The notes beneath the pieces were generated by a model. It saw only the letters and a program-made list of their open reading frames with translations. It made no database searches and was not told the origin of the DNA. 32,509 bases of DNA, taken from sequence record SRR31156797_25125. One strand, written 5' to 3'. Shown here one piece after another: positions 27,497 to 28,138 of the stretch; the stretch's first letter is position 1, and each line of letters starts with the position of its first letter. The translations under genes were made by a program, and so were the position numbers.

Positions 27497-28138
27497 TTAT
27501 GTTAACACGACTACGGCGACAGCAGCTACTGCGGCCTCGGCGGCTGCTGCAACCTGGGCCGCGGCAGCCACATCAGCAACCGCTGCACCCTCTGTGACAG
27601 CGACAGCATTAATGGCGGCTTCAGCGTTGGCTGCGATATTGGTGTTTGCTGCCACATGACTTTTCCCTCCTGCAACAGCTGCAAGCTGGTCATCACTCAG
27701 TTCCCCGGTGACTGGGGGCACATAGGGGATGACAATGTGTTGCACGGTGTCACTGTTTGCAACAATATTGAGGGAGATTCCTGATGGAAGGTTTACTCCA
27801 AGGTCCTGTAGTACGCCATTGATGTCGGTGAGCACTTTATTTTTAAAGGTGTCATCGGAGTGGGCTTTGGTGATGATATATCTCGTAACGATGGCAGGGC
27901 TGGCACCATCTGGGAGAGAATCAATCTTCATCGCATCTGGTAATGGTTGAAAGGGAAGAATGATATTTTTTGCTGTGGCACTATCTTCCAACACCTTATA
28001 ACTGATACGACTGCTTGCAACACCAGCATCTGATAAAACTTTATTAGGATCAGCCAACAGATCATTTTTCAGGTTTTCATCCTGCATGGCTTTAGCAACA
28101 ACTTCTCCGATGGCAACACTTGATATTTTGTCTGTCAT
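27497..28138 (-). CDS. Proteusin (NHLP) precursor peptide with tandem leader domains and a 55-aa core
   Basis: Two NHLP-like units (VVAKAMQDENLKNDLLADP..IILP and IITKAHSDDTFKNKVLTD..IVIP), then ELSDDQLAAVAGG, then core KSHVAANTNIAANAEAAINAVAVTEGAAVADVAAAAQVAAAAEAAVAAVAVVVLT; GGGAGA RBS. Confidence 0.95.
   Translation of the reverse strand: MTDKISSVAIGEVVAKAMQDENLKNDLLADPNKVLSDAGVASSRISYKVLEDSATAKNIILPFQPLPDAMKIDSLPDGASPAIVTRYIITKAHSDDTFKNKVLTDINGVLQDLGVNLPSGISLNIVANSDTVQHIVIPYVPPVTGELSDDQLAAVAGGKSHVAANTNIAANAEAAINAVAVTEGAAVADVAAAAQVAAAAEAAVAAVAVVVLT

Follow-up and report, generated by a model that had tools for sequence, protein, structure and literature searches.

A tandem NHLP-unit leader in a proteusin-type precursor, probably derived from an old duplication of a whole leader

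The leader of P0001, a precursor gene on the minus strand of a 32,509-nucleotide stretch of DNA (the window; sequence record SRR31156797_25125), contains two NHLP units in tandem ahead of one core. We consider it probable that P0001 is a proteusin-type precursor whose leader stems from an old whole-leader duplication, folds into one domain resembling the alpha subunit of nitrile hydratase (NHase), is cut once, after G158, and offers its double domain to the maturases as a handle. In this scenario an old in-frame duplication would have copied an entire single-unit NHLP leader of about 75 amino acids (aa), after which the first copy would have lost its GG cleavage motif while its tail turned into a conserved linker. 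The two-unit architecture would then be the NHase alpha arrangement re-created without the metal loop, and not retained. The parts of the precursor are as follows.

27497..28138, minus strand: precursor gene P0001, 213 aa by translation (leader 1-158, core 159-213, stop codon at 27497-27499).
27944..28102, minus strand: NHLP unit 1, aa 13-65, three helices and a beta hairpin (TIGR03793, PF02979, AlphaFold2).
27878..27943, minus strand: linker, aa 66-87, occupying the positions of a canonical leader tail, without GG.
27716..27877, minus strand: NHLP unit 2, aa 88-141, with a complete motif-1 helix (TIGR03793, AlphaFold2).
27665..27715, minus strand: recognition and cleavage tail, aa 142-158, PVTGELSDDQLAAVAGG, flexible.
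27500..27664, minus strand: core peptide of 55 aa, rich in Ala and Val, with four Asn, no Cys and the C-terminus VVVLT.
28145..28151, minus strand: Shine-Dalgarno-like GGGAGAA, a few bases 5' of the ATG at 28138, by direct reading.

The leader of 158 aa (27665-28138) ends in ...ELSDDQLAAVAGG, with GG at residues 157-158. An earlier note on this DNA had given the same coordinates, and the gene lies on the minus strand. It had also described the protein as free of Cys and the double-glycine motif as following unit 2 only, and both statements hold on translation: there is no Cys in the whole 213-aa P0001, so the CxxCSC metal site of NHase is absent, and unit 1 is not followed by GG. The tail carries an L(X)4L motif (L147 and L152) and, ahead of G157-G158, hydrophobic residues at -4 (V155), -7 (L152) and -12 (L147).

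The two units can be aligned with each other directly. When residues 1-75 were compared with residues 76-158 by BLASTP, residues 13-65 aligned with 88-141 at 21/54 identical positions (39%, E 8e-12), and the profiles of both halves, made from 12 family members, aligned over the same columns in hhalign (E 4.3e-11), which confirms the two-unit internal repeat seen in the earlier note. A HMMER search, expected to give two NHLP-leader matches, did so: the whole of P0001 matched TIGR03793 in two stretches with 94.6 bits (cut-off 50.9), and each unit was also found alone. Residues 1-75 (unit 1) scored 36.9 bits (E 2.5e-9, model positions 7-62 of 77), which alone is under the cut-off, and residues 76-158 (unit 2 with the tail) scored 63.4 bits (6-77 of 77). 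Leader residues 87-158 align to the chain of a proteusin solved by nuclear magnetic resonance (NMR), 8tb1_A, with E 4e-10. PF02979 (NHase_alpha) matches with 62.1 bits, placing unit 1 on model positions 35-93 and unit 2 on 114-174 of 184. The NHLP family is characterised by one unit and a leader of about 80-90 residues, and here two units were found with GG at 157-158. Judged by these profile matches, P0001 is a variant architecture inside the NHLP leader peptide family (TIGR03793).

An AlphaFold2 (AF2) model of P0001 was built with 129 double-leader sequences. Its block-mean confidence (pLDDT) is 89-98 over residues 11-140, including the linker (about 95), and 128 residues reach at least 90. 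The first ten residues average 79, the tail drops to 77 and then 67, and the core is disordered. In unit 1 the modelled elements are helices 2-19, 21-29 and 31-37 and strands 46-51 and 56-61; in unit 2 they are helices 81-94, 96-104 and 106-112 and strands 122-127 and 132-137. The top Foldseek matches are the alpha subunits of NHase and SCNase (E 1e-5, TM 0.36-0.45). VIA-align places model residues 1-144 on NHase residues of about 48-179 in all 35 NHase/SCNase entries (Z 9.1-9.9, rmsd 4.2-4.5 A over 116-121 residues), and the next match is the NMR proteusin 8TB1 with Z 4.3 over 44 residues. Because the model superposes on both NHase halves, the units are predicted to pack roughly as these halves do, and in the model units 1 and 2 together with the linker probably form one compact domain. 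The comparison with NHase alpha that the earlier note had called for thus covered the whole alpha core, with Z up to 9.9, and its proposal of an internal duplication giving a single-chain two-unit domain is supported by the sequence repeat and the AF2 model.

NHase alpha should itself be viewed as a two-unit protein. In a phmmer search, unit 2 of P0001 aligned to both 70-119 and 139-200 of PDB chain 1v29_A. The comparison set, taken from plasmid records (loci L015-L023), comprised eight nthA genes and one scnC gene, and a single-NHLP hidden Markov model (HMM) was made from 22 single-unit NHLPs. This HMM matches both halves in 9/9 NHase/SCNase alpha subunits, in line with the earlier view that NHase alpha has two similar segments around CxxCSC. 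The CxxCSC motif is present in all nine and starts at the end of the second strand of the first unit. On the basis of these matches NHase alpha consists of two NHLP-like units in tandem, and the metal loop sits where they join. Its internal period, taken from the HMM coordinates, is 63 aa in 6/9 proteins, 67 in 2/9 and 72 in SCNase. Since it is 63 in six of the nine, the '63-residue deletion' by which Haft et al. describe NHLPs relative to NHase in excerpts of their paper (PMC2887384) equals one NHase repeat period in size, and the relationship between the two families is reframed accordingly. An internal repeat in nitrile hydratase was not mentioned among the literature matches listed.

The likeness between the leader and NHase/SCNase alpha (PF02979, TIGR01323) thus includes two homologous alpha3-beta2 units in tandem, colinearity over TIGR01323 positions 31-175 of 189 and, in the predicted model of P0001 only, the alpha-beta-beta-alpha two-unit fold of the alpha core. 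The differences are equally clear. The segment P62-F-Q-P-L-P67 of the leader falls where the Cys cluster of NHase aligns, P0001 scores 55.1 bits against a TIGR01323 equivalog cut-off of 249.85, the leader period is 75 aa compared with 63, the first helix of unit 2 is full, and P0001 ends in GG and a core.

Double leaders are not confined to P0001. A scan of 1.84 billion representative proteins gave 1178 matches at E <= 1e-3, of which the best 150 were examined. With 11 further proteins from the homologue set and the query, 161 proteins were counted, and the single-unit HMM found two units in 134 of them, one in 23, three in 2 and four in 2. Double leaders make up 123 of the best 150 of the 1178 representatives, in a search that favours them because the query is one. 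CxxCSC occurs in 0/161 of the proteins examined. The repeat period of the 134 double leaders has a median of 75 (range 43-100), and the 48 proteins with a period of 75-76 have a common linker pattern, P-L-P ... hydrophobic-x-x-L-P. The rarity implied by the earlier note was therefore wrong, as two-unit leaders are common in metagenomic protein clusters. No description of tandem, double or duplicated NHLP leaders was found in the literature searched, which left out subscription-journal articles and supplements; doubled NHLP leaders are widespread in sequence databases and seem not to have been described before.

The origin of the double leader was addressed by scoring its units against three profiles over HMM columns 23-63, with fragments under 70% of the block dropped. 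First units (n=133) gave median scores of 44.4 bits for single NHLPs, 19.9 for NHase N-halves and 17.9 for NHase C-halves, and second units (n=120) gave 47.4, 21.6 and 19.8. The N-half was preferred over the C-half at 75:58 for first units and 62:58 for second units, which is not a pattern in which unit 1 goes with N and unit 2 with C. In a tree of the same columns the NHase C-halves formed a 9/9 clade (support 0.999) containing no NHLP unit. Units 1 and 2 of P0001 share 17/40 positions (42%), compared with 4-10 of 38-40 (10-26%) for NHase halves. Matches of NHase C-halves begin at unit-model position 19-23 and that of P0001 unit 2 at position 11, giving it the full motif-1 helix.

These results bear on the possibility that the ancestral architecture was retained, that is, that the leader descends from a full-length NHase-alpha-like protein which lost its Cys cluster and that single-unit NHLPs arose later by a deletion of one 63-aa period. 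Such an ancestor would explain the colinear, one-stretch matches to NHase alpha models and genes, the Z of 9.9 of the AF2 model across both halves, and the equality between the deletion size in excerpts of Haft 2010 (PMC2887384) and the NHase internal period. Both units nevertheless score as NHLP units without an N/C split, the C-half clade holds no NHLP unit, the motif-1 helix of unit 2 is absent in NHase C-halves, and the period (75 aa versus 63) and the internal identity (42% versus 10-26%) do not fit. In addition, fresh duplications with intact tail remnants offer a ready alternative route. We therefore regard a retained ancestor as improbable. The suggestion in the earlier note that the leader is an evolutionary intermediate between NHase alpha and NHLPs likewise finds no support in the NHLP-like scores, the missing N/C split and the period of 75 instead of 63. 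The unit phylogeny it had asked for speaks against an intermediate, given a C-half clade without NHLP units.

The duplication reading, in which a whole leader was copied, is in agreement with the spacing of the units. The repeat period of P0001, 75 aa, nearly equals the 77 model positions of a complete canonical leader. Unit 1 can be followed in the HMM alignment to model position 72-74, with M70 on consensus L71, and M70 and L75 of the linker sit on the two Leu positions of L(X)4L, a motif formed in MprE7 by Leu70 and Leu75 (PMC12455567). Unit 1 and the linker are therefore colinear with a canonical leader. In P0069, P0025, P0065 and P0043, unit 1 is still followed by a decayed ...ELS...VAG(A/E/R) tail.

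A tree of 287 units, from which units not spanning model positions 16-62 were dropped, places unit 1 of P0001 in a 14-leaf clade of which 13 leaves are first units, and unit 2 in a 28-leaf clade of which 27 are second units. Because its units fall in such position-specific clades, the duplication in P0001 must be old, and a recent internal duplication was rejected for this protein. Across the set, the nearest neighbour was another protein's first unit for 91/133 first units and another protein's second unit for 77/120 second units. The protein's own partner unit was nearest for 17/133 first and 15/120 second units, from which it follows that some duplications were recent and independent, with many events.

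A two-unit leader could also be formed by fusion of two adjacent complete precursor genes, followed by deletion of the first core and its stop codon. Tandem precursor genes are common here, with two in 3/4 related loci, and one protein, P0024, resembles a leader-core-leader-core arrangement with a period of 93 and a Cys-rich stretch between its units; it appears to consist of two complete precursors fused in frame. In P0001, however, the 75-aa period leaves no space for a core remnant and the linker follows a leader tail position by position with no gap, while P0069 illustrates a leader-only duplication with no core between the units. We consider a fusion quite unlikely.

Several observations weigh against an old whole-leader duplication followed by convergence on the NHase arrangement. 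The orthologous precursors match TIGR01323 over positions 31-175 as a single stretch, residues 11-155 align with genuine nthA genes at 21-25% identity (tblastn), and the Pfam NHase model sets unit 1 on the N-half and unit 2 on the C-half. The AF2 superposition on both NHase halves would, like the colinearity, be expected of a retained NHase-like ancestor too, and AF2 may have picked up the two-unit packing from NHase structures in its training. The unit trees use 41-58 columns and are weak at depth, and the single-NHLP profile was built from proteins retrieved with P0001 itself as the query. Homology of the linker to the tail (ELS...GG) was not detected by local profile alignment, as hhalign stops at P65/P141, and because of this the linker-to-tail assignment rests on colinearity and two hydrophobic positions.

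Conservation shows both units to be under constraint. Ten close homologues, 59-83% identical to P0001, retain both units and the linker, of which M70, L75, P76, G78, A79 and P81 are nearly invariant across the family. Four syntenic loci from Desulfocapsa-like and other metagenome-assembled genomes (MAGs), found in a search seeded with a 12-sequence family alignment, carry the same operon. In 3/4 of these there are two tandem precursor genes, each with a double leader. Among eight orthologous genes (28 pairs), dN/dS was lowest in the tail (0.07), with 0.11 in unit 2, 0.12 in unit 1 and 0.13 in both the linker and the core; these values are rough, since dS is close to saturation. By this measure both leader units are under equal purifying selection.

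Unit 1 could still lie outside the working leader, either because translation starts at Met70 or because the unit is a decaying relic. Met70 is nearly invariant and a leader starting there would have ordinary length. The Shine-Dalgarno-like motif, however, precedes the ATG at 28138, and nothing comparable was seen in the sequence before the internal Met70 codon. A relic is hard to reconcile with a dN/dS of unit 1 similar to that of unit 2, with the absence of stops and frameshifts in the eight orthologous genes, or with the model, in which unit 1 is packed against unit 2 at block-mean pLDDT 89-98 for residues 11-60 (79 for 1-10). Both variants are very hard to believe.

The genes around P0001 that bear on maturation and export are listed below.

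25555..27402, minus strand: B12-binding radical SAM C-methyltransferase (TIGR03975, 518 bits).
24204..25571, minus strand: PoyD-family radical SAM epimerase, paralogue 1 (TIGR04517, 407 bits; cluster motif GCSVGCWFC kept).
22831..24207, minus strand: PoyD-family radical SAM epimerase, paralogue 2 (TIGR04517, 499.5 bits; cluster motif kept).
28208..29467, minus strand: NHLP bacteriocin system HlyD-type secretion protein (TIGR03794, 327 bits).
29482..31032, minus strand: TolC-like outer membrane factor (PF02321 and TIGR01844).
17053..19221, minus strand: NHLM ABC1 exporter with an N-terminal C39 peptidase domain (TIGR03796, 1089.7 bits; PF03412, E 9e-41).
14163..17051, minus strand: NHLM ABC2 exporter subunit (TIGR03797, 897 bits).

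The TolC-like and HlyD genes lie upstream of the precursor, and the maturase genes followed by the ABC1/ABC2 exporters lie downstream. All models of the NHLM export set in the window (TIGR03796, TIGR03797, TIGR03794) score above their cut-offs. The two PoyD paralogues are 33% identical to each other; both are present in 3/4 syntenic loci, and the fourth contig ends before that point. From its gene content as read in the sequence, this is a proteusin-type operon. No LanM-like dehydratase was found among the window ORFs (open reading frames) scanned, and Pfam scans of 28 window ORFs gave no NHase beta or accessory family. Unlike the window, 6/8 of the plasmid NHase loci compared have an annotated nthB adjoining nthA.

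According to PMC12455567 and excerpts of PMC12537861, binding by RRE-type domains (RRE, RiPP recognition element) and C39 cleavage are reported to depend for guidance on an L(X)4L motif and on hydrophobic side chains at -4, -7 and -12. As only the tail (142-158) has these motifs and the linker lacks GG, a single cut after G158 during export is expected. The C39 domain of the NHLM exporter would make this cut, and the product would leave through the ABC1/ABC2-HlyD-TolC route. The folded double domain would act as a protein-like handle where the two PoyD epimerases, the B12 radical SAM methyltransferase and other enzymes dock, and the docked enzymes would modify the hydrophobic 55-aa core. We infer the function of the extra unit by analogy: different enzymes use different NHLP surfaces, according to the relevant part of PMC12455567. 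On the other hand, excerpts of PMC10858898 indicate that, among other NHLPs, a brominase can do without the structured nucleus and that OspD can act leaderless.

Docking was also considered by complex prediction. For PoyD paralogue 2 with leader residues 1-145 (tail and core removed) the outcome was graded 'weak support', with a score of 0.53 as compared with 0.19 for the best of 3 controls; the runs agreed on 92% or more of the contacts, and the partner's pLDDT was 84 or higher. In calibration the mark was reached by 51/78 solved complexes and 2/108 mismatched pairs. At scores of <=0.60 there were only 5/78 solved complexes together with all 4 passing mismatches of 180, so that at a score of 0.53 a pass is wrong more often than it is right, unless the pairing was already likely on other grounds.

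A separate observation concerns the epimerases themselves. The N-terminus of the PoyD family (24049-24180, minus strand, residues 10-53 of paralogue 2) resembles the helical part of an NHLP unit, the fold of its own substrate's leader. In hhalign, 103 PoyD N-termini matched single NHLPs with a probability of 91.9% and E 7e-7 over 44 columns (reversed control E 0.14), and direct HMM matches at i-E <= 0.01 were obtained on 22/104 PoyD N-termini. Pfam gave no match on the N-terminal 100-110 residues of either epimerase, and phmmer gave none for paralogue 2 against PDB sequences. Because the PoyD N-terminus is NHLP-like, leader recognition could be a unit-to-unit pairing as between the NHase alpha halves.

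A more far-reaching proposal is that leaders with two to four tandem NHLP units form a widespread, so far undescribed class of protein-sized RiPP leaders, in which duplication has repeatedly rebuilt the NHase alpha fold as a single-chain pseudo-dimer, and that the extra unit provides a second docking surface by which two maturases work on one core at once. These would be the two PoyD paralogues, or an epimerase and a methyltransferase. We put this forward tentatively and consider it doubtful. All five loci of the P0001 lineage have, or may have, two PoyD paralogues, and these represent one lineage only. The plasmid of a cultured strain, Nostoc sp. C057, encodes a double leader with two units, P0162 (RefSeq label: NHLP leader peptide family RiPP precursor). 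Genes for NHLM exporters, a SagB dehydrogenase and a TOMM cyclodehydratase adjoin it, and no PoyD gene lies up to 12 kb away. Because this double leader occurs in a TOMM cluster without PoyD, a strict link between double leaders and double epimerases, which the earlier note had raised, is contradicted.

The PoyA leader has about 96 aa, and solved NHLP chains have 91 and 107 residues. The MprE leader is a single unit of 81 aa (PMC12455567), the AerA leader, as far as excerpts of PMC9060474 go, is a single unit of 100 residues in a pathway with one epimerase, AerD, and the average GG position in NHLP leaders is given as 83-87 in excerpts of Haft 2010 (PMC2887384). In line with the earlier note, the characterised leaders compared (MprE 81, AerA 100) are thus single units. 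With canonical leaders (TIGR03793; MprE7, PDB 8TB1; DprE2, PDB 9CJX) P0001 has in common the three helices and hairpin, a Pro-rich stretch, L(X)4L, GG, the NHLM exporter set and the lack of CxxCSC. It differs in having two units and 158 residues where these have one unit and about 81-87 residues (PMC12455567 and excerpts of PMC2887384), in the predicted joining of its units into one larger domain, and in a first unit without a cleavage site.

The channel-forming proteusin systems of polytheonamide (poy) and aeronamide (aer) resemble the P0001 operon in that an NHLP-type precursor carries a long core without Cys in which Ala, Val and Asn abound, and, according to excerpts of PMC9060474, in the combination of a PoyD-family epimerase with a B12 radical SAM C-methyltransferase. 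The P0001 operon differs in its two epimerase paralogues, its 158-residue two-unit leader, an AprA-MT1-like methyltransferase, the lack of a LanM-like dehydratase among the ORFs scanned, and leader removal that is predicted to be carried out by the C39 exporter and not by a separate protease. Fused NHLP-Burk pairs (TIGR03795) also have two NHLP-type modules in one polypeptide, as set out in excerpts of Haft 2010 (PMC2887384). There, two whole precursors are fused, a two-chain product is suggested, and the same excerpts describe the pairs as lacking GG and NHLM exporters, whereas P0001 has two leader units ahead of one core.

Structural work of 2024-2026 has treated the NHLP leader as one small folded protein of some 80 residues and has asked what the role of the nucleus is. 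Well over 100 sequence clusters with two, three or four units constitute natural experiments on this question, with a docking platform, a chaperone for very hydrophobic cores and a dimerisation module as candidate roles. In genome mining, tandem-unit precursors of 160-230 aa (or 300+ aa) should not be dropped as too long or mislabelled nitrile hydratase.

Some further members of the set deserve mention. Nine distant proteins with the 75-76 period (P0013, P0014, P0027, P0038, P0052, P0054, P0099, P0102 and P0124) have a core in the style of P0001: long, Cys-free and rich in Ala, Val and Thr, with Lys after GG (Ser in P0124) and in several cases, such as P0038 and P0054, a hydrophobic ...VVLT-like end. 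Four units were found in P0015 and P0017 and three in P0062 and P0161. The P0015 cluster has 90 members and an Arg/Trp-rich core, and includes one Trichodesmium MAG protein and one member labelled 'TOMM propeptide domain'. In a sample of 401 genomes from the phylum to which G001 (carrying locus L001) belongs, the NHLP model found matches in 14, and a double leader was present in G001 alone. Two-unit matches in G321, G178 (two places), G040 and G114 were rejected as genuine NHase/SCNase alpha with CxxCSC.

The remaining features of the window are these.

27440..27469, minus strand: 13-bp hairpin followed by a T-run, just 3' of the precursor stop codon.
21730-22827, minus strand: MetX-like (homoserine O-acetyltransferase family) alpha/beta hydrolase, directly downstream of the epimerases.
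20116-21708, plus strand: AprA-MT1-like methyltransferase, 530 aa (PDB 6b39_A, E 1.4e-50; Pfam AprA MT2-like domain, 256 bits).

The hairpin has a folding energy of -24 kcal/mol (z -4.9), which was equalled by 0/200 shuffles, and we propose that it is a terminator or attenuator ahead of the maturase genes. The MetX-like hydrolase is syntenic in loci L001, L002 and L004. The 530-aa protein resembles methyltransferase 1 of AprA from apratoxin loading modules and is conserved in locus L001; in a RiPP (ribosomally synthesised and post-translationally modified peptide) operon it is not of the AerE/PoyE type that would be expected there. A 299-aa ORF (31582-32481, minus strand) without a Pfam or NCBIfam match lies upstream of the TolC gene. 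At 2378-3780 on the minus strand, a gene for a thermolysin-type M4 peptidase is followed by a small emfourin-family gene, a combination of a protease with an inhibitor-like partner.

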